The translations under genes and the position numbers were made by a program. This document shows positions 5,497 to 38,217 of a stretch of DNA of 64,000 bases, one piece after another (the stretch's first letter is position 1; each line of letters opens with the position of its first letter). The DNA is from a virus. The notes beneath the pieces were generated by a model, which had not been told where the DNA came from, searched no databases, and saw nothing but the letters and a program-made list of their open reading frames with translations. Where the stretch lies: IMG/VR virus record IMGVR_UViG_3300024978_000198. The stretch is one strand, 5' to 3'.

Positions 5497-5508
5497 CCGC
5501 GCATAGAT
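5497..5508 (+). promoter_or_regulatory. Class B motif CCGCGCATAGAT, 5 nt before the ATG at 5514
   Basis: One of 13 copies directly upstream of tagged genes. Confidence 0.75.
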
Positions 5509-5513
5509 GGGTT

Positions 5514-7475
5514 ATGAGCGCAGCGAATCAGCCGAGAATCAAGCCAGGTGTGCCAACCGGCGGCCAGTGGGCCGCGTTCGAGCACAACGAAGCAGGGGTG
5601 TCCTTGTCGGATGCACCTCGCAAGCCGGCGTGGTCGGACATTCAGGCGCGGGTCGATGAACTGGCCAAGTCTGGCCATGCACCGGCGCGTGCAACTTCTG
5701 CCACGTCGGATCCACGACGCGCAGCGGGTGCGAAATCGTGGTGGGCGAATCACTTCGTGAATGCCGAGTACGGCGCCGCTGGTGGCGACTATCCCCAGAT
5801 GCCCGACGACTACACACCGAAGCGCACCGGCGGTAACGCGCTGTCAGGACATCGGCGCACACACCGGATGGCATATTCGACCGCAGACGGCAAGTTCTCG
5901 GTGCGGATGCCTTCAGCCACGTCGATCAAAGCCTTCGAGGGCGAGACCAGCGGCACGTTCGACGTACCGGTGTCCGCTGTGGACGCGGGCGGCAATACTG
6001 TTGCCGGCTGGGTCCGGGCCACCCGCTCGGGTGCCAACTGGAACGTGACCGCTCTCGGCGACTTCGGCGAGAAGACCGGCGCGCAGGTTTCGGAAGCGGT
6101 GTCCGCGGTACTGGAGTCTCGCCGTCCGTCGCGCTCGCTGCGCGATGTCGGTGACCTCCTCGAAGCACACCGGGCCCGCAAGGCCGCCGGTGGGGACACA
6201 TTCGTCGAGGTGCCTTCAACGTTCATCAGCGGGGTCGGCTACAGCGACGAGAACGGCACGATGGCCGTTGCGATCCGCGACAAACTCTATGGCTACCAGG
6301 TGTCCCGCGACGCGTTCGAAGCCGTGCGAAACTCAAGCTCCCCCGGCGGCGCCTACAACCGACTGGTAAAAGGACAGGCCCGATCCGAGCTCGGCCGTTG
6401 CGAGGAGTGCGGGCGCTTTTACGCTGCCGCCAATCCGCACACTTGCCCGACCGGTCACAAGCCGCCCACCGGCTTGACGATCGAGCACAACTTGGCCGCC
6501 CGGGCCTCGGTCGCTTCGATGGCGCGCCTAGCAATGCCTCCGACGCCTACCGCTGTCGATGACGGTCTGGACGACGAAACGCGCACCGCGATCGCCGCTC
6601 TCGCCTCCTACAAGGTCGGCGACAAGGACACCGAGGTAACCGCCGACGAAGCTCGGGATATTCTCGAATCCCTCTCGCCAGGTGACTGGTCCACTCGCGT
6701 CTACGGCATCGGCGTCTTCCCCAGCAATCCGACGCCACAGATCGTTCGCATCCATTCCGTTGCGAAGCTGGATTCGGACGCCTACCGCAGTCGCATCGCC
6801 AAGATGTGGGTTTCCGGCACCACGATCAACGATCTGGTTCAACCCGCCCGGCCCGCGCCTCCTCCCCAGCCGCCTTTCGGTACTCACACCGCGGTGCCGA
6901 AGGATGCGAAAACCGTTGATGTGCGCGCCTACATGATCGACGCCGGAAAGGAGCCACTCATCGACGTCGGGTGGAAGCCGGAGGGCTACCGGCGCGGCTG
7001 GACGACAGACCGGGCAGTGGCCGACAGTGTCGGCAAGTACACGTCTTCGCACTACCTCCCGCTGACCTACAAGAACTCGTCCGGGTACGGACAGCACTGG
7101 AATGGTGAGAGCGGCATCTTGCTCTACAGCGGCATCGGTGGCGAGGACGCCGGCGGGCTCGCTGAAGCGATCCCGGCCGGGCTGAAGGGTGAGCGCCAGG
7201 CCGATGGCCCAGCCGCTGCCGCGGTGCTTCAGGCCGCCGCGGCGAGCGACGGACGTCTGGAGGTCGGCGGCTACCTGGTGGGTCCCGATCGCACGGACGA
7301 GCGAGTCTCGACTGATTCCGTGTACCTGTACGACGCGACCGGGTCGTCACCTGAGTACGCGCTGCACACTCTCCGCACGAAGTACGGCGTCGATGCCGGA
7401 ACGCCGACTGAGGTTAAGAAGGTCGAAAACCCGTGGCGCCCCGGCGAGAAATGCTGGTACATGTTCTGGGACTGA
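5514..7475 (+). CDS. GGQF-tagged multidomain protein with a KTSC-like domain and CxxC-x-HxC knuckle
   Basis: Starts MSAANQPRIKPGVPTGGQWAAFEHNEAGVSL; KTSC-like VPSTFISGVGYS...LYGYQV...SSSPGGAYNRLVKG; CEECGRFYAAANPHTC. Confidence 0.8.
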   Translation: MSAANQPRIKPGVPTGGQWAAFEHNEAGVSLSDAPRKPAWSDIQARVDELAKSGHAPARATSATSDPRRAAGAKSWWANHFVNAEYGAAGGDYPQMPDDYTPKRTGGNALSGHRRTHRMAYSTADGKFSVRMPSATSIKAFEGETSGTFDVPVSAVDAGGNTVAGWVRATRSGANWNVTALGDFGEKTGAQVSEAVSAVLESRRPSRSLRDVGDLLEAHRARKAAGGDTFVEVPSTFISGVGYSDENGTMAVAIRDKLYGYQVSRDAFEAVRNSSSPGGAYNRLVKGQARSELGRCEECGRFYAAANPHTCPTGHKPPTGLTIEHNLAARASVASMARLAMPPTPTAVDDGLDDETRTAIAALASYKVGDKDTEVTADEARDILESLSPGDWSTRVYGIGVFPSNPTPQIVRIHSVAKLDSDAYRSRIAKMWVSGTTINDLVQPARPAPPPQPPFGTHTAVPKDAKTVDVRAYMIDAGKEPLIDVGWKPEGYRRGWTTDRAVADSVGKYTSSHYLPLTYKNSSGYGQHWNGESGILLYSGIGGEDAGGLAEAIPAGLKGERQADGPAAAAVLQAAAASDGRLEVGGYLVGPDRTDERVSTDSVYLYDATGSSPEYALHTLRTKYGVDAGTPTEVKKVENPWRPGEKCWYMFWD

Positions 7476-7487
7476 CCGCGCATAAGT
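7476..7487 (+). promoter_or_regulatory. Class B-like 12-mer CCGCGCATAAGT, 5 nt before the ATG at 7493
   Basis: Same core and spacing as the other copies, but the downstream gene is untagged. Confidence 0.55.
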
Positions 7488-7492
7488 ATGTC

Positions 7493-8155
7493 ATGAGGAG
7501 CTGTGCCCATCCTGAGGCGAACACTGTCGGACCGTCGATGAAGCTCGACGCACTGATGCATCGATACCGGCCGGCTTTCGCCGATACTTGGGCTGAGGCT
7601 CTGGAGATCGTCATGGCCTACGAACTGGAAACTAGACGCGTCGATGAGCTCGCGGCGGAGCTGTCGGCGGCCGGACGGTTCGACTTCCCGGTGGTGCTCG
7701 GGTTCGACGAGGTGATGAACGGTACGCAGATCCCGGCAGCGGTTGAAGACGGCATGCACCGCATCTTCGCGCACGTGCTCTCCGGCATCGACGACGTTCT
7801 CGTGTGCGATCTGAACCATGCGCCTAAAGAAGGCGGCTGGGTGGAGTTGGAGTGGATGCTTCCCGCTCCGCTGGCTGAATCGGTGATCGAGGAAATCGTC
7901 TCCCTCGGCTCATTCCGTATGGACGAGGACCACTGGACGGTCATGGAATCGTTCGGCACCAGCGACGCCTGGATGTCGGCATCCGTTTTCGGGGCTGCTG
8001 ATCACCTTGTGCATAAGACGCTCGCCGCGTACAGCGACCGGCTACATGCCGCCGGCGTCTCGCTCGGGCCTGGCATCGCGAGGTGGGCAACTGACCTGGA
8101 CGATTCGCCCGCATGGTCGGTCCTCCGCAGCGCAACCGGCCAGAACGTCAACTAG
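7493..8155 (+). CDS. Hypothetical protein, possible ParB/Srx-like fold
   Basis: PVVL...VEDGMHRIFA resembles the ParB DGxHR motif; start corrected from the motif. Confidence 0.55.
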   Translation: MRSCAHPEANTVGPSMKLDALMHRYRPAFADTWAEALEIVMAYELETRRVDELAAELSAAGRFDFPVVLGFDEVMNGTQIPAAVEDGMHRIFAHVLSGIDDVLVCDLNHAPKEGGWVELEWMLPAPLAESVIEEIVSLGSFRMDEDHWTVMESFGTSDAWMSASVFGAADHLVHKTLAAYSDRLHAAGVSLGPGIARWATDLDDSPAWSVLRSATGQNVN

Positions 8156-9821: not shown

Positions 9822-9916
9822 CACCGACCCCCTGCCGTGTCCTTGCACCTGCCATTTCGGATCGTCGATCTGGACGGTCTGGCGCTGTCGGTGGGAAGTC
9901 TAGGTTGTTGATGCAT
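9821..9916 (-). CDS. Putative 31-aa leaderless ORF (MHQQPRLP...), not in the track
   Basis: ATG 5 nt after the class A motif at 9922-9951; TGATG overlap with the exonuclease start. Confidence 0.4.
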   Translation of the reverse strand: MHQQPRLPTDSARPSRSTIRNGRCKDTAGGR

Positions 9917-9921
9917 ACCCT

Positions 9922-9951
9922 CCACATGTGAGGCAACCGGCCGGCACCCCC
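9922..9951 (-). promoter_or_regulatory. Class A motif
   Basis: GGGGGTGCC-N9-CCTCACATGTGG-N5-ATG. Confidence 0.7.
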
Positions 9952-9967: not shown

Positions 9968-10906
9968 TCAGTACTCTTGCGGCACCTCAAGCTTGGACGT
10001 CATTGTCCAGCCGGACGTGTCGTTCGTCATTCGACGGAGGCTCGCGTCGCCTTTCCGCAAATCTTCGAGCGCCTCGGCTGCAGTGCCAGCCCACCCGGTG
10101 CTGTTCAGCGTCGCTGGGTCGAGACGACCGGCCCGCGGGTTGGCGCGCTCGATCGCCCATTTGTATCCGCCGTCGTTGAACGACTTCCAGAACCGGATGC
10201 GGGACCCCATCTCGTTGGCCGACCACGAGTGCTGAGCGCCTGAAGTCCAGCGAACCCCTACGTCGTCGGTGAACCACTCATCTCCGTTGCCGCCGCTGAG
10301 CTTCTCGGCTGTTGAGGCAGGGCTGTCAGTGCTGCTCCACGAGGCGTATGGGGCCTCACGGTCGGCTCGATCCAGATGAGAGCGCAGATCTTCGTAGAAG
10401 GACCCGGACTGGTATCCGCCATTCAGGGCATTGTGCAGTCGAACGGCGCCCGGGTCGGTCTCGGCCCGCAGGACGAGATCACCGATGTTGTCGTCCTCGT
10501 CGAAGTCGTCGATGACAAACTCGGCCTCCTGTTCGCTCCAGTCATCGCCGCCGCCGCCGAGCGACATGCCGTAGTTGTCGGTCAGGAACTTGCCGATCTC
10601 GTCGATGTGGTCGTTCAGATATCGGTCGGCGTCGTCCCCGACGTGATCGTCCGGGCATGCCTGCGTCAGATCGAGCCGGACGGCGCCTTCGATCACCGGG
10701 TTGGACCCGCCGACCAGTTCGAGCCGGTCATAGAGCCCGCCTTGTGCGGGCTGCTCGTGCGGAAGCTCGACCGAGTCGCCATCCTCCGGCATGATGTCGG
10801 CGACGAGGGCTGGCTCGTACAGATCGACGTCGGATTCGCCATGACTCGTTGGTGCGAATTGGCCGCCCGTGGGTACGCCAGCCTGGATACGGTTCACGTT
10901 GCTCAT
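9968..10906 (-). CDS. GGQF-tagged acidic hypothetical protein
   Basis: Starts MSNVNRIQAGVPTGGQFAPTSHGESDVDL; class B motif at 10912-10923. Confidence 0.8.
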   Translation of the reverse strand: MSNVNRIQAGVPTGGQFAPTSHGESDVDLYEPALVADIMPEDGDSVELPHEQPAQGGLYDRLELVGGSNPVIEGAVRLDLTQACPDDHVGDDADRYLNDHIDEIGKFLTDNYGMSLGGGGDDWSEQEAEFVIDDFDEDDNIGDLVLRAETDPGAVRLHNALNGGYQSGSFYEDLRSHLDRADREAPYASWSSTDSPASTAEKLSGGNGDEWFTDDVGVRWTSGAQHSWSANEMGSRIRFWKSFNDGGYKWAIERANPRAGRLDPATLNSTGWAGTAAEALEDLRKGDASLRRMTNDTSGWTMTSKLEVPQEY

Positions 10907-10938
10907 GCCATATCTATGCGCGGCACCAGTGGTCGGGG

Positions 10939-12576
10939 CTATTCCCGCGACCACTGGTCCATGTTGCTCTCCAGCCACTTGACAGCGCTTTGCTCATCAC
11001 TGAACTCTCCCTCGTCCTGAGCCCGAAGTGCGGCCCCGAGAATCTGTCCGAATACTGGCCCCGGCTCGAATCCGTAGTGCTTGAGGTGATGGCCAGTGAG
11101 GTATCCGCCACGCGGCCTGTCGGCGGTCCCGAGCTTGCTGGCGACCCGGACCCACGCATCGGCCGGATTAGACCCGCTGGCCGAGCCGCGCCCCGCGTGG
11201 TCCGCGCCGACGACCGCAGCCCACAACTGGAGCCCAGGTCCGCGCCCGCCCGGCGCGTCGAGCCTTCGTATGAGACGCCGAACTGCGTTCGCAGATGGCG
11301 TCCCCCCTTGCTGCACTCCGGCGACGGCCATGTGATTCGAGATGATCGGCAAGATCTTCTCGGCATACTTGGCCGGGGCTCCGATGCGCTCCAGGAGCGC
11401 ACTGGCCGGCTCGACGCCTGCTTCGGCATGGCCGTGCGACGTGATTCGCGTCCCGGGCGTTTCGGCCAGGTTTGGGTCCGGTAGCTGGGTGTGTGTTGCC
11501 TTGCCCAGATCGTGGAACATGCTGGCAAGCACGACCACAGCTCTGTCGTTCTCGGAGACCCGGTTTTTCGACGCCCAGGTGGCCGCGGCATCGGCCGACA
11601 AACCAAGGTGCACGTGCACCGGCCCTTCAGGATGCCACTTCGGATCCTGCGCGACGTCTCTGCAAGCGGCGAGCTCCGGAAAATGCTTCTCCCAGTCGAC
11701 CTCGTGCAAGGCCGCAAGCGACTGGGAAGGCGACTCAGCCCTAGTTGCGATCTTCTCCCACTCGCCCCAGATGCGCTCTTTCGGCAGCTCCTGGAACCGA
11801 TCGGCCAAGTCTCGGCACAACTCCGCGGTCTCAGGAGCGAAGCGCATATCGAAGCGCCCGGCCATCTGCACACCGCGCAGGACTCGCAACGGATCGTCGG
11901 AGAACCGGTCGCTGACGTGTCGCAGAACGCCGACCTGGAGGTCGGCCGATCCGCCGTAGTGATCGATCAGCGTCTCGGGTACCGGGTCGTAACCCATTGC
12001 ATTGACGGTGAAGTCGCGCCTGGCGAACGCCTCTAGCTCACTTAGCTCTGGGTCGATCTCGACGTCGAAGCCGCGGTGGCCGACACCGGTCTTGGAATCT
12101 CGCCGCGGCAGGGATACGTCGAAGTCGCCGTAGATGCCGTGTACTTTGATGACTCCGAACGACGCCCCTACTTCATCGACCCAGGCTGAATTCCGTTCGC
12201 CAAGTGGGCGTAGAGCTTCCCGGAGTTCGCCTGCTGTCAAGCCGTATACCTCGATGTCAACGTCTTTCGGAAGGATCCTCGACCCATGCATGCGGGCGAT
12301 CATGGAGTCGCGCACAGATCCGCCGACAATAATCGGTCGCCCACCGGCGTTCAGCACGACACTGAGCACATCCCACGCGCTGGTCGAAAGCGGAACGAGC
12401 CCGGGAGACAGGCAACGGTGTTCACTACCGCGTGAGGAAAGCCTGTCGCAGTTGACGCAGCGGAAGACCCCAGCCGGCATGTCAGACAGCGTGACGCCCG
12501 ATTCATTGTGGAAACCGGCGCTGAACTGCCCGCCCTCCGGAACTCCGGATCTGACACGATTTCGACGCAGAAACAT
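10939..12576 (-). CDS. cca: GGQF-tagged class II tRNA nucleotidyltransferase (CCA-adding-like) with HD domain
   Basis: GGSVRD, PKDVDIE, RRDFTVNAM, DDPLRVLR, ERIWGEWEK, and HD domain WHPEG...FHDLGK...GHA; class B motif at 12582-12593. Confidence 0.88.
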   Translation of the reverse strand: MFLRRNRVRSGVPEGGQFSAGFHNESGVTLSDMPAGVFRCVNCDRLSSRGSEHRCLSPGLVPLSTSAWDVLSVVLNAGGRPIIVGGSVRDSMIARMHGSRILPKDVDIEVYGLTAGELREALRPLGERNSAWVDEVGASFGVIKVHGIYGDFDVSLPRRDSKTGVGHRGFDVEIDPELSELEAFARRDFTVNAMGYDPVPETLIDHYGGSADLQVGVLRHVSDRFSDDPLRVLRGVQMAGRFDMRFAPETAELCRDLADRFQELPKERIWGEWEKIATRAESPSQSLAALHEVDWEKHFPELAACRDVAQDPKWHPEGPVHVHLGLSADAAATWASKNRVSENDRAVVVLASMFHDLGKATHTQLPDPNLAETPGTRITSHGHAEAGVEPASALLERIGAPAKYAEKILPIISNHMAVAGVQQGGTPSANAVRRLIRRLDAPGGRGPGLQLWAAVVGADHAGRGSASGSNPADAWVRVASKLGTADRPRGGYLTGHHLKHYGFEPGPVFGQILGAALRAQDEGEFSDEQSAVKWLESNMDQWSRE

Positions 12577-12658
12577 ACCTCATCTATGCGCGGCGCAAAA
12601 CACCCATTCGTTGCACGCCCAGCCGTGGTTGCGGCTGCCTCTCATGCAGTTCGGCGGC

Positions 12659-12690
12659 GGGGGTGCCGGCCGTATCCCCCGCACACAACC
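12659..12690 (+). promoter_or_regulatory. Class A-like motif with an 11-nt spacer, upstream of the helicase
   Basis: GGGGGTGCC-N11-CCGCACACAACC. Confidence 0.45.
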
Positions 12691-12725
12691 GTCGAACTCA
12701 TTCATGAAGAGCGGAGAGATCTCTC

Positions 12726-14216
12726 GTGGCGCACAAGACCGGTGGCAGGAAGCCGACCCCGGAGCAGAAGGCGGTCCTGGCCGCGTTCCGACAGGGGAAG
12801 TCGATGAGGGTGACAGCGCTGGCCGGTTCCGGGAAGACGACGACGCTCGAATATCTGGCCCTCAAGTCGCCGGATAAGAAGATCCTCTACATCGCGTTCA
12901 ACAAGTCGGTGCAGGTCGAGGCCGAAGAGCGGTTCCCGCGCAACGTCACGTGCCGCACAGCTCATTCGCTGGCGTTCAGTCGATTCGGCGGTCCGCTTCG
13001 CGGACGCCTCTTCCCGCCGGCCCGTGTGCCGGCGAACATGGCCGCACGCCTGCTCGGTCTGCACAAGATGAACCTGCGCCCCGAGAACAAAGACTCGGAG
13101 CCGCCATCCCTCAGCTCATCGGCCCTGTACGCCATGGCACGCTCCACCGTCACCCGGTTCATCCGATCTGCCGACGATGAGGTCGCCGAGCACCACTACG
13201 TCAAGCCGGACGGACTCACCGCATTGGATGAGGACCTCGAAGGCCTGAAGAAGGTCGTCGTAGACGCCGCCCGCGAGATATGGGAGGACATCTCCGATCC
13301 GAACGGGAAGCTCCGCTGCGAACAGGACGTCTACCTCAAGCTCTGGGCAATGTCGAAGCCGAAGCTCCGGGGCTACGACGTCATCATGGTTGATGAGGCA
13401 CAGGACACCGACCCGCTTCTCGCCCAGGTGATCGAAGCGCAGACCCAGACGCAGATCGTGGTGGTCGGCGACGAGAACCAGGCGATCTACGGATGGCGCG
13501 GTGCCACCTCGTTCATCACCGACTTCCCGGCTGAGAACGAGGTCAGCCTTACGCACAGCTTCCGGTTTGGCGATGCCATTGCCGCCGAGGCGAACATCTG
13601 GCTCGACCACCTTGGATCGCCGATGCGCGTGGTCGGCAACCCAGCGAAGAGCTCGACGGTCGCCGAACTCACCGACCCGGACGCAGTCCTGTGCCGCACC
13701 AACGGCGGAGCCATGGCCGCGGTCATGCACTACCTGCCGCTAGGCAAGGAGGTAGCTCTCGTTGGTGGCGCGCGCGACCTCAAGCACTTCGTCGAGCAAG
13801 TCGATCTGCTGCGGCGGGGTCGAACGGTCAGCCACCCCGACCTTGCGACTTTCCCGAACTGGACGGCTGTGCAGACCTACGCCCGCACCGACGAAGGCAA
13901 GGACCTTCTGGTGTGGGTGAGCCTGGTGGAGACGTTCGGAACGGCACGTCTACTGGATGCCATCGACAGCCTCGAACAATCCGAGAACGACGCCGACGTG
14001 GTGGTGTCCACGGTCCACAAAGCCAAGGGACGGCAGTGGCCGAAGGTGCTCATCTGGGGAGACTTCCCCGAACCGACAGTCGACGACAACAACATCCTGC
14101 AGCCGCTCGAACGGGACGAGAAGATGCTCGCCTACGTCGCCGTCACCCGCGCACAGGATGTGCTCGACCCGGCCGGCCTTGCGTGGATCCGCGACTATCC
14201 CGTCGGATCGATCTGA
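12726..14216 (+). CDS. UvrD/Rep-like SF1 helicase
   Basis: ALAGSGKT, VDEAQD, VVGDENQAIYGWRGA, LTHSFRFG, STVHKAKGRQW, YVAVTRA. Confidence 0.92.
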   Translation: MAHKTGGRKPTPEQKAVLAAFRQGKSMRVTALAGSGKTTTLEYLALKSPDKKILYIAFNKSVQVEAEERFPRNVTCRTAHSLAFSRFGGPLRGRLFPPARVPANMAARLLGLHKMNLRPENKDSEPPSLSSSALYAMARSTVTRFIRSADDEVAEHHYVKPDGLTALDEDLEGLKKVVVDAAREIWEDISDPNGKLRCEQDVYLKLWAMSKPKLRGYDVIMVDEAQDTDPLLAQVIEAQTQTQIVVVGDENQAIYGWRGATSFITDFPAENEVSLTHSFRFGDAIAAEANIWLDHLGSPMRVVGNPAKSSTVAELTDPDAVLCRTNGGAMAAVMHYLPLGKEVALVGGARDLKHFVEQVDLLRRGRTVSHPDLATFPNWTAVQTYARTDEGKDLLVWVSLVETFGTARLLDAIDSLEQSENDADVVVSTVHKAKGRQWPKVLIWGDFPEPTVDDNNILQPLERDEKMLAYVAVTRAQDVLDPAGLAWIRDYPVGSI

Positions 14217-19358: not shown

Positions 19359-19381
19359 GTCGTATCTATCCGCGGCGCCAG

Positions 19382-19705: not shown

Positions 19706-19710
19706 GGTTC

Positions 19711-19740: not shown

Positions 19741-19757
19741 GTGGATCGGCAAGTCCG

Positions 19758-22824: not shown

Positions 22825-22866
22825 GGCCGGTGCTCCAATTGCCGACGGAACGAGGGTGCCGTCTCG

Positions 22867-26072: not shown

Positions 26073-26083
26073 CGAAAACCCTC

Positions 26084-28744: not shown

Positions 28745-29767
28745 CTACGCCCCGAGATAGCCGCGCAGAGGTTCGAAGTCTGGATCGTTCGGACTGGAGA
28801 ACTCAGCAAGGACGGCTAAGTTGTGCCCGACGACTTGATTGCTCTTCACGCGCTTACCTGTGACCGGACGCATCACCCCATAGCGAACGGTGCCTGTCAC
28901 AGGAGCGACAATCAGATGGGTGCAGCCGGAGCATCCCGCGTCGGCTGCCTGAGCGGATGAAATTGCGTAGAGCTCGTAGGTTGCTGTCTGGTGCCCTTTG
29001 TGTTCGGGCTTGACCTTGAACGGTGCGCGACCAGCACGAAATAGGTTCGGAGAACCTTGCAGCTGCGGATCGAAGCCGCCCGAACGGAGCACCATCGACT
29101 CTTCAGGATCCTCATAGCCGAGGCCATGCCACCGGCGGGCGGCAGCCGGGCCGAACTCTGCGGCGCGCCACCGTGCCGACCGAATTGGCCCGATTCCACG
29201 GGCGCGCCAGACGTCAGCCGTTGCCGGGTCGAATCCGTTTCTCTTCCATTCCCCGGCGTCACCTGCACCGAAGCTGAAACCGGACCAGGCATCGGCCTCG
29301 TCCATACCTGTCTCTGGGTCGAATCCGGCCTTGATCCAAGGGACGTTAAAGTTCGCGTTCCCGCCAGGACCCGAGCGGTTCCACTTAGCCGCAATAGCTG
29401 GGTTGGTCACGCCTGCTTCGACCCAGAGATGCGACTCATCCGCACCGATGCCTTCTGCTGCCCACGCGCTGGACCCCATCTCGTCTCTGGAATCCGCAGG
29501 TTGGGCCACTTCGGCTTCGTCGTCCCGGGATTCCGACGCATCAAGTGCGGCCAGGAAGTCGTCGGTGGCGGCGTTCGATTCGTCGATTCTGTGTTGCAGG
29601 GCAACCCAGTCGTCGAAACCCAACTGAGTGCCCCCGCCAGCCACCTCTCGCCGCCATTCTTCGGCAGTGTAGTCGCCTTCCAGGGACACGCCGGCGTCGT
29701 CGTGAATAGTCGCTGCGAACTGACCGCCGGTGGGAACACCTGGTCGTACTCGATTCTGCATGATCAT
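28745..29767 (-). CDS. GGQF-tagged protein with WxxxGF repeats
   Basis: MIMQNRVRPGVPTGGQFAATIHDDAGVSL; class B motif at 29773-29784. Confidence 0.8.
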   Translation of the reverse strand: MIMQNRVRPGVPTGGQFAATIHDDAGVSLEGDYTAEEWRREVAGGGTQLGFDDWVALQHRIDESNAATDDFLAALDASESRDDEAEVAQPADSRDEMGSSAWAAEGIGADESHLWVEAGVTNPAIAAKWNRSGPGGNANFNVPWIKAGFDPETGMDEADAWSGFSFGAGDAGEWKRNGFDPATADVWRARGIGPIRSARWRAAEFGPAAARRWHGLGYEDPEESMVLRSGGFDPQLQGSPNLFRAGRAPFKVKPEHKGHQTATYELYAISSAQAADAGCSGCTHLIVAPVTGTVRYGVMRPVTGKRVKSNQVVGHNLAVLAEFSSPNDPDFEPLRGYLGA

Positions 29768-29792
29768 GCCCTATCTATGCGCGGTCTGGTGA

Positions 29793-30278
29793 TCACACGA
29801 AGTAGAGTCGGCCCTCGCCGTACTCTTCGAGATTCGATGATCCGTACACTTTGGCCGCGTCTGACAGCGTGTCGCCGTCTTCACCGAGTCCGTGGTCCCA
29901 GAATCCGGCTCCGTGCCTATTGCGCGTCAGGAAGAAATCGTGTCCGACCTGGCTGAGTCCGTAGTTCGGGTGTTGTGCCCGGACTCGTTCGATAGTGTCG
30001 CGGTTGGCGGCCAAGAAGTCAGCGACCTCGCCTCTTGCCTCGTCCAGCGAGGCAGGCATGATGTCGCCGGCGTCGTAGTTTTCGTCCATCGGGACGTCAT
30101 GTTCGTCGCACGAAGCCCACAGCGCTGTTTCCACGTACGACGACATAACCTGCTCGATATCGTCGGGCCGATAGTCGCCGGGGGCCTCAAGCAGTTGCAC
30201 ATCGGGCGCTCCGTGTTGCTTCTCCGCGAATTGGCCGCCGGAGGGAACCCCTGCCTGAACGCGATTCTGTGTGCTCAT
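29793..30278 (-). CDS. GGQF-tagged phage-type hypothetical protein
   Basis: MSTQNRVQAGVPSGGQFAEKQHGAPDVQL; YVETALW and GHDFFLTRNRHGAGFWD blocks; class B motif at 30284-30295. Confidence 0.8.
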   Translation of the reverse strand: MSTQNRVQAGVPSGGQFAEKQHGAPDVQLLEAPGDYRPDDIEQVMSSYVETALWASCDEHDVPMDENYDAGDIMPASLDEARGEVADFLAANRDTIERVRAQHPNYGLSQVGHDFFLTRNRHGAGFWDHGLGEDGDTLSDAAKVYGSSNLEEYGEGRLYFV

Positions 30279-30547
30279 GCCCCATCTATGCGCGGGAGCT
30301 GCCGCCGCCCGATGCCGAATCTTCGTGGGAGAGGGCAACGGATCGGGCGACGTTCTCGGCGAACAGCCAGTACCAGCCGCCCGCATGTGCTTGTGCGGGC
30401 GGCCAGCTGACGTGGGCCAACGCCTACGGTCGGGCCACAGGAGTCGCGCGCTATGAGGGGAATCTGCGCGCGGTCCTCGCGAGGCAGTTCGCAGTACGAC
30501 ACATCGGACGCGTTGGGCGGCTGCGGCTCGTGATACCGAACAGAACG

Positions 30548-33163
30548 TCACGCGTCAGCGGTTATGGTTGCGTACTTCGTGCCGTGGTCGGCATAGAGCT
30601 TCTTGATCGAGTCACTGTCGGCCGGGGATTCGTATACCGCCCGCCGGATCTTTGGGCTCTTCAGATTGATGCCGTAGAGAACTCCGTCCTTCTCGACGCC
30701 CACAGCGATGATCCGGTCGAACTCATCGCCGTGGGCGTCGGCATACTCGGCCAGCGCCTTGAGCTTCGGCGCCGCGTCTCCGAGGTGGGCGCCGTGAGGA
30801 TCGATGAGCGAGGCCCGGAACTCACCGTCGCTCTCATGGACGAAGACGAAGTCAGGCTGTACCGATCGCCACTCGTTACCGGCCTTGTGCGCTATCCGAA
30901 GCGAGTTCTCGCCAGCGGATGACGGATTGCGATACCACCCTGCGATCGTGTCGAGGCCGAGTTCGCACTTGATTGTGGCGCGTTCCCAGCGATTGTTCGC
31001 CGTCCTGAGTTCGAGAGGGTAGTCGCCTTCGGCTGTGGCGAGCACGTGCTTGCGCTCCGTCGGGAGCGTTTTGCGGTCAGTGTCGACCGAGTCGACCTGC
31101 TCATCGGTCTTGATCACAATGCCGATGCGCTCGGGTTCACGGGCCATGTCCTGAATCGCCTGATACGTCGGCTGCCGGGAATCGGGCAGGTTTGCGATCG
31201 CGCCCGCTTTGGCTGTCAGCCAGCTCCGGGTGAGTGCGTCGGCCGCGTCTTCGACGAGTTTCTGTACATCGGCGTCGATGAACGCCAGAGCTGCAACACG
31301 AGCTCGGAGGGCGGTCAGGTTGACCATCGACGGGTCGTCGCCCCGCTCGTAGGCGTCGCGCACGGCTCTGTCGATGTTCCTTCGGAGGTACCTGTTCACG
31401 ACGGATGCGCTGATCAGTCTACGCAGATGACGTAGCGCATCTGTGACAGTGGCCGCGTCAGCGTCTCGGGTCGTCGTGTCGTCAGTCGATTCGGTTTCAC
31501 CGCGCTGGGCAAAGATCCGGCGGATGTCGGCCGTCATGACTTGCTGCGCTTGCTTCTCGACGGACTCCGCATTCGCTGCGGTGATCGAATCGAGGACATC
31601 GAACATCGCCTCGTGGGCAATCTTGTTGGCCTCCGGAATGAGATCGTCCTGAGAGAGCGCCTGCGCTGCCTTGAGGATGCGCTTGATCGGACGCGGCTCA
31701 GTGGCCGGTTTCGCGAACGACGGCAATTCCTCGATCGTCGAGAACACCTCAGCAGGCAGATCCTTGTTCCGCAGCAGGGTCACGGGCTTGAGCATGACCT
31801 TCGAGATAATGGTTCCCCCGCCGCCAGGGCGTGGCTCACGCATCCCCATGATCTCTTCGGCGACCACCCTCGCCGTCTCCTTGTCGAAGTATGGCAGGTA
31901 GCACGACGACGTGTTGAGTCGTTCGACCGAAGTGGACTGCGCCAGCGGGGTGCGAACCATTCGTCCGAGAAGCTGGGTGACGTATGTGTCGTCCTTGCCG
32001 GGCCGAAGTGAGACGAGCACCTCAGCGCGAGGGCAGTCCCATCCGGTGGAAACGGCGTCTTTAGCCAGGAGGACCCTGATGCGCCGATCTCGTTCGACGT
32101 CCTGGGGTGCGACCTTCGGGATCACGTACGCGCCGACTTCAATCAGTCCGCGGTCACCTATAACGTGGGCCACGCCATCTTCGGGCAGCTCCGACCAGCG
32201 CTTCCGGATCGTTTCGAGCACGATATGGATTATCTGGTCCTCTTCGATCAGGCCCTTCTCGGTGTCCTTTTCGCCGGCAGCCTTATTAGGGATCTGTACG
32301 ACGAGCAGTGGAACCACCGGTTCGATGTTCTGCTCATCGCAGTACGCGTCCCACCGCTCGCACATCTCAACGAAGTCGGCCGTAGCGGCGCGCACCATGG
32401 TGGTCGAGAAGTCGCCGTCTTCATCGGGGATGTCCAGGACCAGCGCGTTCTTCAGCAGACCGGACTCTTGCACGTCCTTCGGGTCGATGATTATGTTGGT
32501 CGCCTTGATGAACGCGTCGGCCTTGGCCATCGCGTCAGTGAAGCGCTGCACGGTAGCCGAGATGCCCCAGACGATCGGCATTGCCGGGTTGACGCCGTTC
32601 CCGTTGATGATCTTGTGGACGATCGTCGTCGCGCCACTCGACAGCGCCCGCATGCCCTCGTGCGCCTCATCGAGAACCATATAGAGCGTCTTACTTTCGT
32701 CCCTGATGGTGTTGTCGAGGATCTCCCAAAACGTGAAGTGTCGGCTGTCGGTGTGCTTCACGAAATCGGCGCTCTTGCCGAGCTTGTCAGGATTGATGAA
32801 GTAGACAGTGCCCGTCTGCAGCGACTTCTCCGCGTAGGTCTTGTCGAGGAGCACCATGTCACCGATCGGGATCCGGTCGGCGCACTCGATGAATCGGCTG
32901 CGGGTCTGTTCGTTCAGTGAAGGATCTTTCGACACCCACAGCACCACGGCCGACGGGTCCGGCTCGATATCGAATTCGTCGCTCCCGTGCAGAAGCGCCT
33001 CGATCACGGTCGCTGCGATCACGGTCTTGCCCGAGCCGGTGGTCGACGACAACGCGAAGGTTGTCCGCTGCTGCCTACCGTGCCAATCCTGCCGGGCGTA
33101 CGTCAGGGATTTAATGATCCGCGCAACCGCGGTCGTCTGGTAGTCCTTCAGCGTGAACCGCAC
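30548..33163 (-). CDS. res: Type III restriction subunit-like SF2 helicase/nuclease
   Basis: LKDYQ, TTGSGKT, VLDEAH, GISAT, TGWDCPRA, QLLGRMVR, C-terminal VQPDFVF; directly downstream of mod. Confidence 0.85.
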   Translation of the reverse strand: MRFTLKDYQTTAVARIIKSLTYARQDWHGRQQRTTFALSSTTGSGKTVIAATVIEALLHGSDEFDIEPDPSAVVLWVSKDPSLNEQTRSRFIECADRIPIGDMVLLDKTYAEKSLQTGTVYFINPDKLGKSADFVKHTDSRHFTFWEILDNTIRDESKTLYMVLDEAHEGMRALSSGATTIVHKIINGNGVNPAMPIVWGISATVQRFTDAMAKADAFIKATNIIIDPKDVQESGLLKNALVLDIPDEDGDFSTTMVRAATADFVEMCERWDAYCDEQNIEPVVPLLVVQIPNKAAGEKDTEKGLIEEDQIIHIVLETIRKRWSELPEDGVAHVIGDRGLIEVGAYVIPKVAPQDVERDRRIRVLLAKDAVSTGWDCPRAEVLVSLRPGKDDTYVTQLLGRMVRTPLAQSTSVERLNTSSCYLPYFDKETARVVAEEIMGMREPRPGGGGTIISKVMLKPVTLLRNKDLPAEVFSTIEELPSFAKPATEPRPIKRILKAAQALSQDDLIPEANKIAHEAMFDVLDSITAANAESVEKQAQQVMTADIRRIFAQRGETESTDDTTTRDADAATVTDALRHLRRLISASVVNRYLRRNIDRAVRDAYERGDDPSMVNLTALRARVAALAFIDADVQKLVEDAADALTRSWLTAKAGAIANLPDSRQPTYQAIQDMAREPERIGIVIKTDEQVDSVDTDRKTLPTERKHVLATAEGDYPLELRTANNRWERATIKCELGLDTIAGWYRNPSSAGENSLRIAHKAGNEWRSVQPDFVFVHESDGEFRASLIDPHGAHLGDAAPKLKALAEYADAHGDEFDRIIAVGVEKDGVLYGINLKSPKIRRAVYESPADSDSIKKLYADHGTKYATITADA

Positions 33164-33165: not shown

Positions 33166-35292
33166 TCAGTTCCTCCCGGTGTTGATTTGGAAGGTACGCA
33201 GGTACGACTCGTACAGGCGCACGGATTCGACGCCGTCTGGTAGCTGTCCGGCGATCGACTGATACTGAACTTCGTCGTCGGTCACGATGTAGGCGACTCG
33301 GACTCCTGTGGCCTTTTCGATGGCTGACAGGAACGGGCTGGCCGAATCGACGTCAAACAGCACACCGTACCTATCCGCCACGTCGAACGTGTCGCATCGA
33401 TCATCGATCCGTCGCCCCTCGGAGCCCGCTCGCATCCATAACAGCGGTGCGATCCGCTCGAACGCCAGGTCCACCTCCACCAAGGCCGGATTCTCGTACG
33501 TCAAGGTGAAGAACTCGACGTTCTCCTCGAAGCCATCGGCCATCGGAAACTCGTCCGTGAACTTGTAGTCACCCGCTATCGGGTCGCCGCCCGGGGTAAG
33601 ACCGGTGATTGCAGCACTAATGCGTGGCTTCGTTATGTGTTCGCATATCCCCAGTGCATCCCAGTCTGAGTCGCCTTGACGCAACCCTTTTCTAAGGAGC
33701 TTCTCTTCTTGATCATTTACCTCATTGTTCGTGACCGACACCGATCTACGTCGCCCACCATCTTGCCGATTCAGACGCATCACAGAGTGCGCGGTGGTTC
33801 CAGAACCAGCGAAAAAGTCGACGACAAGAGCGTTTGGTTTAGCGGAAACGAAGAATCTAAGACTGTCTTCGACAGCGTAAAGAGATTTTGGAAACGGAAA
33901 TTTTCGATCTGGCAGGATCTTCAATAGTAGTCGAGTGCCATTCTGTGTCGCGTCGTGACTACTTAGCCTCCATTGCGAACTAGGCACCATAAGCCGCTCC
34001 GATACCTCAACAGAGTCGGTGATGACCGATCCATCTTCGCGGTTTCCTAAGACGTCATAGAATCCTTCGGCTATTTTCTTTCGCTCACCTTCCGCCAGAT
34101 AGTAAATGGGCGTATTCTCACCGTTGATTGAACCTAGTCGCAAGCATCCTTCAGCTAAGACTTTACGCACCGTTTCAGGCTTCAGACGCCACCGCCCCTC
34201 ACTGCCGTCCCTGCGTATGGGCCAAACGGCGAATGTGCCAGGAGGTGGTGAAGTATCAGATCTTGATACCCCTACACCGATTGGATCACCAACGCTATGG
34301 AAACGACTCCCATCGCTAGTGACGAAAAATGGGTAGAAGGTCTCAGGGTGGCCATCACGGGTGGGAGAGCTTCCTGACTTTCGAAGTAGGTCCCAACGAA
34401 TCTCGCCGCGATGCGTTCTCCCCTTCGACGTCACCCATTCGTCCTTTAATGGCAGTGGGCGAGCACCTGCCGATCCAAACATCACAAAGAACGCATATTC
34501 GTCAGACCTACCAAAATAGCCGTCCCTTGCCACAGAGGCTGGATTTATGAAAATCGACACCATCTGAATCTTGGCCTCTGGGCATGTTTGTTGCAGTAGA
34601 AGGCCCAAACGATGTACTTCCTTCTCGTCGATAGTCACGATCAGAACCGACTCGCTCGGATTCAGCAGCTTCTTGGCAATCTTCAGCCGCCGCTCCATGA
34701 ATGCAAGCCACTTCGAGTGCGCGTAGGAGTCGCCAGGATCAACAAAGTCGTTGTTGTACTTCCAGTCATTTGCCCGAGTATTATACGGCGGGTCGATGTA
34801 TATGCAGTCGACCTGCCCCTGGTAGGTGAATAGCATCGCTTCGAGCGCGTGGTAGTTCTCGGCGTTGATGACAGCGTGGAAGGGCTTGTCTCCGCCGCGC
34901 TCGACCTTCCCGGTTGAGATCAGGCCTGGGTAGATCGGGGCGCGAAAGTCTGCGATGAACACGAGGTCGTCAACCGCACGATCCGCTTCGTCCTTCGTTT
35001 TCGGGTCGACGAGACAGGCGATCCGCTTGCTCTTGGGCCCCGTTATGTCGGTGACGAGCCACGTAGCGTCCGAGTCGGCAGAAACCTCACCCCTCGGCGG
35101 AAGGAACCGGACCTTGTCTCCGACCGAGATGGGACGCCCCGTCAGAGCGACCGACTCGGGCATGTGACGCTCGAAGTTCAGTCCGAACTCGCGTCTGCTC
35201 TGCAACAATTCGATGTGCCGGCCAATTTCTTTGGCGGTGGCCGGGTCCAGTTCTTCGATGCGCGCCAGTAGCGCGGTCAGTTCATTGCTCAT
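33166..35292 (-). CDS. mod: Type III R-M methyltransferase subunit
   Basis: INAENYHAL, IYIDPPYN, FPFPKSLYA, VDFFAGSGTT. Confidence 0.92.
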   Translation of the reverse strand: MSNELTALLARIEELDPATAKEIGRHIELLQSRREFGLNFERHMPESVALTGRPISVGDKVRFLPPRGEVSADSDATWLVTDITGPKSKRIACLVDPKTKDEADRAVDDLVFIADFRAPIYPGLISTGKVERGGDKPFHAVINAENYHALEAMLFTYQGQVDCIYIDPPYNTRANDWKYNNDFVDPGDSYAHSKWLAFMERRLKIAKKLLNPSESVLIVTIDEKEVHRLGLLLQQTCPEAKIQMVSIFINPASVARDGYFGRSDEYAFFVMFGSAGARPLPLKDEWVTSKGRTHRGEIRWDLLRKSGSSPTRDGHPETFYPFFVTSDGSRFHSVGDPIGVGVSRSDTSPPPGTFAVWPIRRDGSEGRWRLKPETVRKVLAEGCLRLGSINGENTPIYYLAEGERKKIAEGFYDVLGNREDGSVITDSVEVSERLMVPSSQWRLSSHDATQNGTRLLLKILPDRKFPFPKSLYAVEDSLRFFVSAKPNALVVDFFAGSGTTAHSVMRLNRQDGGRRRSVSVTNNEVNDQEEKLLRKGLRQGDSDWDALGICEHITKPRISAAITGLTPGGDPIAGDYKFTDEFPMADGFEENVEFFTLTYENPALVEVDLAFERIAPLLWMRAGSEGRRIDDRCDTFDVADRYGVLFDVDSASPFLSAIEKATGVRVAYIVTDDEVQYQSIAGQLPDGVESVRLYESYLRTFQINTGRN

Positions 35293-35445
35293 CGCCGTGC
35301 TCCATCACCTTGGCGCACCGAAGCCGGCCCAGACGACAGCGCGCGCTTGTGACGCGATGGTGGGCAATAGCATTCTCGGCGCTCTCCTATCCTCGCTGAC
35401 GTGGGTCCACAGTTCTTGCTTCTGACCCGACATGCAGCTCATCAG

Positions 35446-35475
35446 GTATGTGTGCGGCAGGTTGATGGCACCCCC
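35446..35475 (-). promoter_or_regulatory. Class A motif upstream of mod-res
   Basis: GGGGGTGCC-N9-CCGCACACATAC; nearest ATG 3 nt away and mod starts about 150 nt downstream. Confidence 0.65.
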
Positions 35476-35742: not shown

Positions 35743-36756
35743 TCAGTGGGGGTTTTTCTTCTCGTCCTCGTGCATCCACCGTGCCCGGTCAAGAGCCTCA
35801 TCCAGGTCGACGCCTCGCGCATCAGCCCAGTGCATAAGGTCGGTCAGCGCATCTTTCAGCTTCGTCTGCGGCTCCTCGTCGGCGTCCACCCATCTATTCA
35901 TGACATGCTCGGCGCGCGCCGCAGCGCGTGACGGTGCTGTCTGAGTATCTGGCTCGCGCTCCGCGTTGATGAACCCGCCTGCAAGGCTGATCGATACCGG
36001 CTGGCCATCTCCATCGGTGGCGGCGTAGTTGCCGTCCGGTAGTGCGTCGGGAATCTCGCCGATCGTGCCCATATAGATCTGGACGCCTGTATCTTCCGAG
36101 CGGATGATGACAAGCTCCTCAGCGTAGACGGAGTCGTTCGCCGACACCGGAAGCATTCCGGTCTTTTGGGTTTTCTTGCTCAGTCGGCGCAGGTCTCCGT
36201 CTAGTGACTGTGCGTAGTTCATGGCCGCGTTGATTCCGGTGGACTCGGGGTCGTAGGTGATGTCACCGGTGTCGCGATACTCCGAGATCGAGGTGAAGTC
36301 GCCGTGCCGGCCGGTGTAAACGGCGATCGAGTAGCCATCCACCCCCTCCCCGTCCGACTCGAAGGAGAACCGCGGCTCACCGACCGCGAGCTGTGACGAT
36401 GTTACGAATTGTCGCTCGTAACCGCGGCGCAGTCGATGGAATACCTCTTCAGCTTGTCCGAGCTCGTAGGAGCCTTCCATTGCGCCGTAGGTCTCTTCGA
36501 TCTCGTCGATCACGTCCTGCCGCGAACGGGCCACGCCGTCGTCGAAGTTCTCAGGATCGGTGATGACCGCGAACAACTTCTTGTTCTCATCGTCAAGGTT
36601 CCGGTAGTACGCAAGCACTCGCGAATCATCGATCTCCGCTGCGATCGGGTCGCTGGCCGGATCGGTCAGCAGCGTCACATCGGACTCGCCTTTCGTGTCC
36701 GGTGCGAACTGGCCGCCCGCGGGCACGCCGGATTGGACTCGCTTCTGCATGTTCAT
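35743..36756 (-). CDS. GGQF-tagged hypothetical protein
   Basis: MNMQKRVQSGVPAGGQFAPDTKGESDVTL; class B variant CCGAGCAAAGAT at 36762-36773. Confidence 0.8.
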   Translation of the reverse strand: MNMQKRVQSGVPAGGQFAPDTKGESDVTLLTDPASDPIAAEIDDSRVLAYYRNLDDENKKLFAVITDPENFDDGVARSRQDVIDEIEETYGAMEGSYELGQAEEVFHRLRRGYERQFVTSSQLAVGEPRFSFESDGEGVDGYSIAVYTGRHGDFTSISEYRDTGDITYDPESTGINAAMNYAQSLDGDLRRLSKKTQKTGMLPVSANDSVYAEELVIIRSEDTGVQIYMGTIGEIPDALPDGNYAATDGDGQPVSISLAGGFINAEREPDTQTAPSRAAARAEHVMNRWVDADEEPQTKLKDALTDLMHWADARGVDLDEALDRARWMHEDEKKNPH

Positions 36757-36759
36757 GGC

Positions 36760-37155
36760 CTATCTTTGCTCGGGTGGCTCGACGCGCTCGCCGTCTCGGT
36801 ACCACTGCTTTGTGCTGTTTTTCCAATCGATTGCCGGTCCGTCGTCGCGGTGCAGTTTGCCGTTGCGGTACCAGTCGTTGTTACCGCCCGGACGTTCTAT
36901 CGCCGGTCCGTCGTCGCGATGGCGTGTTCCGCTTCGGAACCACTGTTTCGCACCGTTGGCGTTCTCAATCGCCGGCCCGTCTTCACGGTGATACTCGCCG
37001 GCGGCGTTTCGCCATTCCATGTCGCCGTGCCGGTTGACCCGCATGGTGGAGCTATCGGTGGGCGCTGCCAAGCTCACTTCTGAGGCATAGTGTTGCTGCG
37101 TCGCGAATTGACCGCCGGTTGGAACCCCTGCGGAAACCCTTCGCTGTCTGCTCAT
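36760..37155 (-). CDS. GGQF-tagged protein with three HRxDGPA repeats
   Basis: MSRQRRVSAGVPTGGQFATQQHYASEVSL; class B variant CCGCATATAGAT at 37161-37172. Confidence 0.8.
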   Translation of the reverse strand: MSRQRRVSAGVPTGGQFATQQHYASEVSLAAPTDSSTMRVNRHGDMEWRNAAGEYHREDGPAIENANGAKQWFRSGTRHRDDGPAIERPGGNNDWYRNGKLHRDDGPAIDWKNSTKQWYRDGERVEPPEQR

Positions 37156-37328
37156 ATCCGATCTATATGCGGGATGGGCAGGTCTACCTCGTGACTAGAG
37201 GATTCGCGCGCACGTGGGCGAAAACTCGGCGTTCACAAGTGCGACTTCCGGATCCGTCGTGGTGATTCTCGGCGACCTGGCCGCCCATGGATACGGGCGT
37301 GCCAACGGGGCGGCGCCGCCGATCGAGC

Positions 37329-37991
37329 TCACTTCCTATTGGAAGCCAGGTCGAACTCCCCGGGGAAGAACCTTCGAGCACCTTGCTCTGCGTCTTCATC
37401 CGAAATCTCGACCCAGTCCTCGTTGCGGAAAGTGTGCTCGACGATATAGCGCTCGCAGTCCTCCTCGTACCAGCCGCCCCTACGCCTCCATGCCGGATGC
37501 ACTTGCTTGTTGCGCTGCTGGGAAAGCTTGTATCCGCCGTGGCCGGCGGTGGATGCAAAGGCGACGCCGGGAGCGAGGTTCTCGACGTGTTGAGCTCTGC
37601 CCCACGGCGTGGTGGATCCCTCGCGGACGCTGATGCGCCCGTAGCGTTCCTCCTCTGATCTCGCCCGCTCATCGATCTTGAGCATTGCGATGGCGTCGAT
37701 CGCCTGCTGCCGAGCATCTTCCGCGGACGCCCCTTGCCCCGTGATCGTGTGAAGTCCGTCGGCGGTGCTGGCCTCCCAGTAGCCGGATTCGGCAAGGACC
37801 ACGAGATTGAACCCGTCCTTGGTGGCACGGGAAACCTTTCCGGAAGGCGTCTCCACCCAGTCGACTCTGGCAACGAGTGGCGTTGACGCGCTGTCCAGGC
37901 TGACTCCAGATTCGGCATGCTGCTGCGGAGCGAACTTGCCGCCTTTGGATGCCGGGGTGCCCTTTGGGTGTCTCTTCTGATCGGTCGTCAT
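37329..37991 (-). CDS. Protein with a variant tag and a DUF7007-like C-terminal domain
   Basis: MTTDQKRHPKGTPASKGGKFAPQQHAESGVSL; TPWG...STAGHGGY...WYEEDCE; class B variant CCGCACATAGAT at 37997-38008. Confidence 0.75.
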   Translation of the reverse strand: MTTDQKRHPKGTPASKGGKFAPQQHAESGVSLDSASTPLVARVDWVETPSGKVSRATKDGFNLVVLAESGYWEASTADGLHTITGQGASAEDARQQAIDAIAMLKIDERARSEEERYGRISVREGSTTPWGRAQHVENLAPGVAFASTAGHGGYKLSQQRNKQVHPAWRRRGGWYEEDCERYIVEHTFRNEDWVEISDEDAEQGARRFFPGEFDLASNRK

Positions 37992-37998
37992 ACCTGAT

Positions 37999-38217
37999 CT
38001 ATGTGCGGTGGCGCCCCATGTACGCTTCCGTCTCGGCGCAGACGTTTCGCTCGTCGAACCCGAAGCAGGAGAACACCTGGCCGGCGAGCTTGTCGACTCG
38101 CACCCACACCGGGAACCGAGCGTAGAGGTGCGCGAGCTCTCCAGACGTCTCGATGACGGTTCCGGGGCCCTCGGGCGTGACAACCCGGTCGCCGGGGCGG
38201 AACACCGAATCGGTCAT
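37999..38217 (-). CDS. Small SH3/KOW-like hypothetical protein
   Basis: FRPGDRVVTPEGPGTVIE; ATGA coupling to the upstream ORF. Confidence 0.6.
   Translation of the reverse strand: MTDSVFRPGDRVVTPEGPGTVIETSGELAHLYARFPVWVRVDKLAGQVFSCFGFDERNVCAETEAYMGRHRT

Follow-up and report, generated by a model that had tools for sequence, protein, structure and literature searches.

A short box upstream of tagged genes is probably part of a leaderless promoter family of large actinobacterial conjugative elements

We analysed a 64,000-nucleotide (nt) stretch, hereafter the window, of the IMG/VR record IMGVR_UViG_3300024978_000198, where the 12-mer CCGCGCATAGAT precedes many genes whose products share the N-terminal tag x-R-V-x-x-G-V-P-x-G-G-Q-F-A. 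A preliminary description of this DNA had named the 12-mer the class B motif and had taken it for a leaderless promoter class that co-expresses all tagged genes, read by a sigma factor, activator or RNA polymerase of the element. Our analysis suggests that the 12-mer is probably the downstream half of a leaderless promoter and that class B is a subclass of a promoter family specific to large actinobacterial conjugative elements. The scaffold to which the window belongs is 118.5 kb long and stems from the metagenome of a bioreactor or wastewater community.

All 13 box copies reported earlier were recovered. Nine are exact, with an expectation of 0.00 from 100 dinucleotide-preserving shuffles, and four further sites (19364, 36762, 37161 and 37997) carry one or two mismatches. 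In 12 of the 13 copies exactly five bases (N5) separate the 12-mer from an ATG, as had been claimed, and all 12 ATGs open tagged open reading frames (ORFs). In the exception, at 21390, no ATG stands five bases on; the ATG of the tagged gene comes only at 21362, after a leader that is about 22 nt long and contains AAGGAGG. We also found a variant, CCGCGCATAAGT-N5-ATG at 7476-7487, which the earlier list did not contain and which lies before the untagged gene 7493-8155. The sites are given below; class A, mentioned in two of the lines, is a second promoter class with the -35 box GGGGGTGCC and the core CCGCACA, described further on.

5497-5516, plus strand: class B, exact 12-mer, N5 and ATG; tagged gene 5514-7475
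7476-7495, plus strand: variant CCGCGCATAAGT-N5-ATG; untagged gene 7493-8155
10904-10923, minus strand: class B, exact; tagged gene 9968-10906
12574-12593, minus strand: class B, exact; tagged CCA-adding/HD enzyme 10939-12576
19356-19375, minus strand: class B, one mismatch; first gene of the four-gene tagged operon 19358>18456>17044>16634
21362-21401, minus strand: class B 12-mer, exact, +1 without ATG; AAGGAGG leader of about 22 nt, tagged gene 19758-21362
22221-22240, minus strand: class B, exact; tagged gene 21444-22223
22787-22823, minus strand: hybrid of the class A -35 box GGGGGTGCC and an exact class B 12-mer; tagged gene 22262-22789
28168-28187, minus strand: class B, exact; first gene of the four-gene tagged operon 28170>27307>26072>25023
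29765-29784, minus strand: class B, exact; tagged gene 28745-29767
30276-30295, minus strand: class B, exact; tagged gene 29793-30278
36754-36773, minus strand: class B, two mismatches, CCGAGCAAAGAT; tagged gene 35743-36756
37153-37172, minus strand: class B, two mismatches, CCGCATATAGAT; tagged gene 36760-37155
37989-38008, minus strand: class B, CCGCACATAGAT (class A core plus TAGAT); tagged DUF7007 gene 37329-37991

A six-frame scan gave 19 tagged ORFs in the window, plus a degenerate tag in the ORF that starts at 17044. Six tagged genes have no box of their own, and all six follow boxed genes within two operons whose genes are tightly packed or overlap, in agreement with the preliminary description; the untagged methylase gene 23234-24640 comes next after the operon that begins at 28170. 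Almost all class B genes are on one strand. Performing a Fisher test of box against tag over about 65 window genes, we obtained p = 1.7e-9, which bears out the association claimed earlier; the value was p = 2e-8 when the variant at 7476-7487 was counted. The exact 12-mer with N5 and ATG gave single chance matches only in viral and genome collections, including one in Gordonia, and near-identical DNA had no match in plasmid or phage collections.

Compared in pairs, the box sites were 0.92 identical over the 12-mer, 0.45 over the 5-nt spacer and 0.26-0.27 over the 60 nt upstream. The third (synonymous) positions of the invariant Gly and Pro codons of the tag showed an identity of 0.32. Since the 12-mer is far more alike than its flanks and the synonymous sites, the box appears to be kept by selection and not by recent copying.

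After reading an inverted repeat at 52037-52109, we looked for every CCGC(A/G)CA that has a start codon ten bases downstream. Numbering the A of the ATG as +1, we find that class A promoters have the layout GGGGGTGCC-N9-CCGCACA-N10-ATG, and that their CCGCACA occupies the same place, -17 to -11, as CCGCGCA, the first seven bases of the class B 12-mer. Class A carries GGGGGTGCC at -35 to -27 and varies at -10 to -6, while class B has TAGAT at -10 to -6 and mostly no -35 element, so that it is conserved from -17 to -6 and random upstream. TAGAT and the -35 box tend not to occur together (3/16 vs 16/20, p = 5.6e-4). Eighteen copies in the window have the upstream GGGGGTGCC box, and untagged genes follow all of them but the hybrid at 22787-22823. 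As judged from these alignments, class B is no separate motif; there is one core, CCGC(A/G)CA, common to class A and class B, with two completions. The class A sites are as follows.

19703-19739, minus strand: class A, GGGGTGCC-N9-CCGCACA-N10-ATG; untagged gene 19382-19705
38873-38909, minus strand: class A; untagged gene 38393-38875
41400-41436, minus strand: class A, core CCTCGCA; deoxynucleoside monophosphate (dNMP) kinase gene 40611-41402
43535-43571, minus strand: class A; MoxR-like AAA gene 42386-43537
46293-46329, minus strand: class A, core CTGCACA; NAD-dependent DNA ligase gene 44106-46295
48420-48456, minus strand: class A, core CCACGTA; small gene 48198-48422
49278-49314, minus strand: class A; EAL-domain gene 48474-49280
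52024-52122, no single strand: class A divergent pair, perfect inverted repeat; genes 51742-52026 (minus) and 52120-54801 (plus)
61083-61119, minus strand: class A, core CCACACA; gene 60579-61085
61494-61530, minus strand: class A; gene 61299-61496
63596-63632, minus strand: class A; DUF2201 metallopeptidase/VWA gene 62252-63598
5440-5476, minus strand: class A, ATG at +1 opens a 40-codon ORF only; GGGAG ahead of the ATG of gene 4739-5323
9914-9950, minus strand: class A, core CCTCACA, 31-codon ORF at +1; then an RNase T-like exonuclease gene with a G-rich Shine-Dalgarno-like stretch
12660-12696, plus strand: class A-like, core CCCCGCA, +1 without ATG; leader with GGAGAG, GTG of the UvrD-like gene 12726-14216
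35438-35474, minus strand: class A, +1 without ATG; leader with GGAG ahead of the ATG of methylase gene 33166-35292
56114-56150, minus strand: class A, +1 without ATG; GGAGG leader and in-frame ATG upstream of the NADAR-SLOG gene

GC-rich strong hairpins without T tracts lie directly upstream of several class B boxes (10924-10960, 22807-22866 and 30296-30345), two of them reaching z = -3.5 and -4.2. They may end transcription of the gene that comes before. The hairpin at 22823 takes in the GGGGGTGCC box.

The same core is found on relatives of this element, which we searched for tagged genes with a pattern back-translated from RVxxGVPxGGQF. Tagged genes occur in many genera, among them Arthrobacter, Brevibacterium, Nocardioides, Nakamurella and Oerskovia, as well as in acidimicrobial metagenome-assembled genomes (MAGs) and others. 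In Arthrobacter, Brevibacterium, Nocardioides and Nakamurella, and on pACHL01, the complete megaplasmid of Pseudarthrobacter chlorophenolicus A6, tagged genes are headed by CCGC(A/G)CA-N10-ATG. Acidimicrobial and other actinomycete MAGs show a variant box, C(C/T)GCCCT(CT), before tagged genes at the same distance to ATG or GTG; this variant suggests that promoter and reader may have diverged together.

Genome-wide, the core pattern clusters on elements, each with its own 3' extension: CCGCGCATG(T/G) in Nakamurella, CCGCACACAT in Arthrobacter and CCGCACACC(T/A)T in Nocardioides. On pACHL01, CCG(C/T)ACA-N10-ATG occurs 104 times vs 0 in the reversed control, before tagged and untagged genes alike; this plasmid carries genes for a type IV coupling protein, an FtsK-like ATPase, a Tad pilus, DnaE, SSB and NrdEI. 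The Nakamurella element has about 48 core copies. In 400 other genomes of the class, GCCGCACA-N10-ATG was found 0-8 times per strand, near the control (this tally includes four unpublished genomes, and the claim is independent of them), and on host chromosomes core-N10-ATG was likewise near the control level. Because the copies cluster on elements and are near control elsewhere, the signal appears to be element-borne and not a general host promoter.

Several features point to a start of transcription at the ATG itself. The spacing between core and ATG peaks sharply at ten bases in three elements. In the window 21 sites have this spacing, and none of the other spacings between 5 and 15 has more than 5; the two other elements give 24 vs at most 2 and 48 vs at most 6. 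Logos of four independent elements show a conserved block from -18 to -7, a preference for C at -1 and A at +1, and A at +4. Boxed genes have a mean complementarity to the anti-Shine-Dalgarno sequence of -1.6 kcal/mol, compared with mostly -5 to -12 for the other window genes (Mann-Whitney p = 1.5e-5), and the tagged genes inside operons, which have no box, carry ordinary Shine-Dalgarno sequences. At six boxes (21390, 5476, 9950, 12660, 35474 and 56150) no gene-opening ATG stands at +1; leaders of about 20-150 nt with Shine-Dalgarno-like sequences come before the real start there. The rigid spacing, the absence of a Shine-Dalgarno sequence, C at -1 with A at +1, and the Shine-Dalgarno-bearing leaders wherever +1 has no ATG together argue for a leaderless promoter. 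Both its function and its start being read from the sequence, the box is most likely a leaderless promoter with transcription starting at the ATG. The leaderless class of the preliminary description was thereby upheld in its start-fixing behaviour, but it is not independent of class A.

Most box genes of the window, pACHL01 and Nakamurella have an A directly behind the ATG, and their proteins, tagged and untagged alike, start with Met-Ser, Met-Thr or Met-Asn. This pattern may be favoured in leaderless initiation or in the initially transcribed sequence.

The box does not resemble common promoter types. Scanning 19000-31000 for the sigma-70 consensus, we found sites no commoner than in shuffles and none at the boxes. 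TANNNT was not found at about -12 to -7, as had been noted before: the logos show C at -12 and A at -11, then TAGAT, CAT or TGT, with no T at -12 or -7. Promoters of extracytoplasmic function (ECF) sigma factors combine a GGAAC-like -35 with a CGT-like -10, 16-17 nt apart. That layout was not seen in either class, GGGGGTGCC ending 9 nt before the core and class B being without any -35 element.

Tagged genes appear to have a promoter subclass of their own. On the rest of the contig, a tagged ArdC gene is preceded by CCGCACATAGAT-N5-ATG and a tagged gene of 113 codons by CCGCGTATAGAA; the association of motif and tag there is weaker, yet still present. Nakamurella promoters have TC at -19/-18 in 17 of 19 tagged vs 2 of 22 untagged cases (p = 1.7e-7), and of the two untagged exceptions one is apparently a tagged gene read out of frame, while the other is the orthologue of a gene for a 198-residue protein that bears a class B box on our contig. 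The plasmid-wide CAT at -10 to -8 of pACHL01 is present in 3 of 13 tagged promoters vs 8 of 10 (p = 0.012). These two contrasts indicate that a subclass for tagged genes and the replication operon recurs in at least two elements, and the bases that mark it differ between elements. The genes concerned include ArdC, the DnaE operon and one that is excisionase-like, a content that resembles an establishment set no less than the late or transfer programme proposed earlier.

We searched for a reader of the core with Pfam on the roughly 65 window ORFs and the contig extensions, and by tblastn with the sigma factors of three relatives. No sigma-70-family or RNA polymerase gene was found on the about 107 kb of this incompletely assembled element, so the element-encoded sigma factor or polymerase foreseen in the preliminary description did not turn up; a WhiB-family gene lies just outside the window. 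The 893-residue protein encoded at 52120-54801 had no Pfam match and no DxDGD-type polymerase motif. On pACHL01, positions 377249-380221 encode a 990-residue fusion of an SF2 helicase, a complete primary-like sigma-70 and a C-terminal extension, and this gene has its own box at leaderless distance; a homologue of the fusion was found neither on our element nor in Nakamurella. In Nakamurella the contigs encode ECF-like sigmas and, like our element, WhiB-family proteins, whereas pACHL01 has no WhiB-family gene. With sigma and WhiB genes distributed in this manner, no one candidate co-occurs with the core. WhiB-family proteins act on sigma region 4. As a hypothesis only, a -35-dependent class A and a -35-independent class B would suit a protein with this target.

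The WhiB-family gene here (103 codons, plus strand, about window position 68583-68894) adjoins the dCTP deaminase gene. Its homologues occur on both Nakamurella element contigs, one of them directly behind a box promoter.

Taken together, we propose that RNA polymerase on the core would start at the A of the ATG and yield an mRNA without a 5' leader, which would be translated without a Shine-Dalgarno sequence. Where +1 has no ATG, the same promoter would give a leadered mRNA with its own Shine-Dalgarno sequence. Class B would be a -35-independent, extended '-10-only' variant. It would make a unit of the tagged cargo genes, the tagged ArdC, a nuclease-DnaE-exonuclease operon and the excisionase-like gene, and this unit could be regulated apart from the class A genes (ligase, dNMP kinase, MoxR/VWA and helicase). 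We infer such separate regulation of the two classes. The reader may be an element sigma encoded beyond the sequenced part, or a host polymerase modified by an element factor such as a WhiB-family protein. A more general version, that conjugative elements of several actinobacterial orders have their own leaderless CCGC(A/G)CA grammar with a separately switched subclass for tagged, anti-restriction and replication genes, for example via WhiB, is speculative and in our view rather doubtful.

Several observations weigh against the promoter reading with its tagged subclass. The match of class B to the tag is imperfect. Besides the window box at 7476, an exact 12-mer precedes the untagged gene for the 198-residue protein, the first gene of the DnaE/exonuclease operon, whose N-terminus we take to resemble Holliday-junction-resolvase-type nucleases; a hybrid copy precedes an untagged HTH_17 gene. 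The tag regulon claimed earlier is for these reasons an enriched subclass, seen also in Nakamurella, and not an exact one. Regarding the reader, there is the lack of a sigma or polymerase gene already described, and the sigma types of the relatives, the helicase-sigma70 fusion and the ECF-like sigmas, are mutually unrelated. Region 2.4/3.0 of the pACHL01 sigma presumably resembles that of E. coli sigma70 and other primary sigmas, which speaks against this sigma as the specific reader. The core does have A at -11, yet T is missing from both -12 and -7, so that recognition by the usual housekeeping sigma is not expected. Finally, twelve invariant bases exceed most sigma -10 elements, and a sequence-specific regulator would also fit them.

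It is accordingly worth asking whether the 12-mer is mainly an operator, that is, a stoperator-like site for an element-encoded repressor or activator overlapping a weak promoter, in which case the constancy of the 12-mer would stem from what this protein binds and not from the polymerase. We consider this unlikely. Nine copies differ at none of the 12 nt, a strictness uncommon among -10 elements; every copy is oriented with transcription; the class-specific bases vary by element, as expected if each had its own regulator; and helix-turn-helix, MerR, Lsr2 and WhiB genes are on the contig. However, an operator need not hold a one-nucleotide-exact distance to the start codon at more than 170 sites in three elements, and no other promoter-like element is seen upstream. 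The core is, moreover, common to both classes and to nearly all backbone genes of pACHL01, and basal promoter recognition fits this better. An action of the box on RNA, as a processing site or translation signal inside longer transcripts, is very improbable. Cleavage there might make the mRNAs leaderless, or the box might be another way of recruiting ribosomes. A signal for processing or for placing the ribosome might well keep a constant spacing from the ATG, and the core contains ACA, the type of site that MazF-like nucleases cut. On the other hand, the operon-internal tagged genes have ordinary Shine-Dalgarno sequences and no box, and at 21390 and five class A sites the box is separated from the real start by 20-150 nt that include a Shine-Dalgarno sequence. 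In class A another conserved block, 9 nt upstream of the core and placed like a -35 box, is required as well, and the box shows neither a conserved fold nor anti-Shine-Dalgarno complementarity.

The regulon could in principle be an artefact of duplication or gene conversion, box and tag having been copied recently as one cassette, and the two do occur together at 13 loci of the window. We give this almost no credence: flanks, N5 spacer and synonymous tag positions are at or near random (0.26-0.45) vs 0.92 for the 12-mer, the same box precedes untagged genes, operon-internal tagged genes lack it, and the core is conserved in distant elements. The comparison of identities has largely refuted a recent-duplication cassette. 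It is just as hard to believe that the box is part of an Frpo-type single-strand promoter, active on the incoming transferred strand, even with a conjugative-plasmid-like content (ArdC, DUF7007 and adhesin) and class B genes lying nearly all on one strand. When the 13 sites were folded as single-stranded DNA, there was no shared hairpin over the box (z mostly -1.7 to +1.1), and the few strong hairpins sit upstream and are terminator-like. A long imperfect hairpin that recreates -35 and -10 was not seen at the 13 sites, and we rejected this candidate.

The source element is, judged by its genes, a conjugative plasmid or integrative element and not a phage. Homologues of the tagged DUF7007 protein were found in 416 plasmid vs 3 phage records, and the best actinobacterial matches of DUF7007 are Arthrobacter-group megaplasmids. 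The window encodes a giant zinc-finger/helicase/methyltransferase protein, a helicase-methylase pair, HipBA, the UvrD-like helicase, NAD-dependent ligase, dNMP kinase, an R2K ATP-grasp protein, the EAL protein, NADAR-SLOG and the MoxR/VWA-metallopeptidase pair. To its right are genes for ArdC, the WhiB-family protein, dCTP deaminase, DnaE, two tRNAs, MerR, the excisionase-like HTH_17 protein, two integrases, ParA and Lsr2. At its left edge (1-571) the window begins within a gene for an IS256-type transposase, and further out on that side are genes for G5-domain proteins and for a SpaA/thioester adhesin with over 3,700 residues. The ArdC gene (ArdC-N plus M78 peptidase; minus strand, about window position 70001-71029) has both the N-terminal tag and a TAGAT-type promoter. 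Through it the tag is connected with a class of proteins presumed to work in the recipient. The two tRNAs, tRNA-Arg(TCT) and tRNA-Lys(TTT), are at about window position 67015-67483 and decode A-ending codons, which are rare in the 63% GC background; no tRNA was found in the 64-kb window itself.

If the box is a promoter, it offers a short handle for annotating poorly known actinobacterial megaplasmids and integrative elements, and it would predict transcription and translation starts for more than 100 pACHL01 genes. It points to a polymerase specificity other than the housekeeping TANNNT. A promoter subclass tied to the tagged family (ArdC, the CCA-adding enzyme and DUF7007) makes the function of the tag approachable by experiment, with the tagged proteins as candidate transfer or establishment cargo. 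The box may also provide compact expression signals, free of Shine-Dalgarno sequences, for high-GC hosts.

In the literature we searched, the coverage of which is incomplete, we found no published description of the core, of classes A and B or of the pACHL01 consensus. The nearest known systems share some of these features. Start-site maps of Mycobacterium, Corynebacterium and Streptomyces show leaderless promoters of the housekeeping sigma with TANNNT at -12 to -7 and the start codon at +1. Our box is like them in having the start codon at the predicted +1, no Shine-Dalgarno sequence, A at -11, a pyrimidine at -1 and a purine at +1. It is unlike them in that its information lies in CCGC(A/G)CA at -17 to -11 plus element-specific bases, and in that it occurs on mobile elements alone, host chromosomes making no use of it. 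Among phages, T4 late promoters (TATAAATA) are read by gp55/gp33, and the extended -10 promoters of Thermus phage middle and late genes are favoured when a phage protein blocks sigma region 4. Class B resembles these '-10-only' promoters as a single, highly conserved block around -10 without a -35 element, and a second, -35-using class on the same element, as in the phages, is suited to class switching. In contrast, no gp55-like sigma or known appropriator was identified on our element, which is plasmid-like or resembles an integrative conjugative element, and its transcripts are presumably leaderless.

Mycobacteriophages provide two further comparisons. The start-associated sequence (SAS) of cluster K phages contains the ribosome-binding purine run and lies 3-8 bp from the start, and the stoperators of cluster A phages are many oriented, repressor-bound sites at variable distances. 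As with both, many copies of an asymmetric 12-13 bp motif are oriented with transcription just upstream of gene starts. Unlike the SAS, the box is without Shine-Dalgarno complementarity, is exactly spaced and has a -35 partner in class A; it fits stoperators in orientation and copy number, but holds an exact N10 core spacing. Plasmid-encoded sigma regulons, such as that of SigN of Bacillus pBS32, and the annotated helicase-sigma70 fusion of pACHL01 are alike in having an element-wide promoter consensus distinct from that of the host. They differ in that no sigma gene was found on the 107 kb examined and the core-sharing elements are without a common sigma type. The element-specific promoter family proposed here has an unusually clear anatomy, is widely distributed and is tied to a family of tagged proteins.

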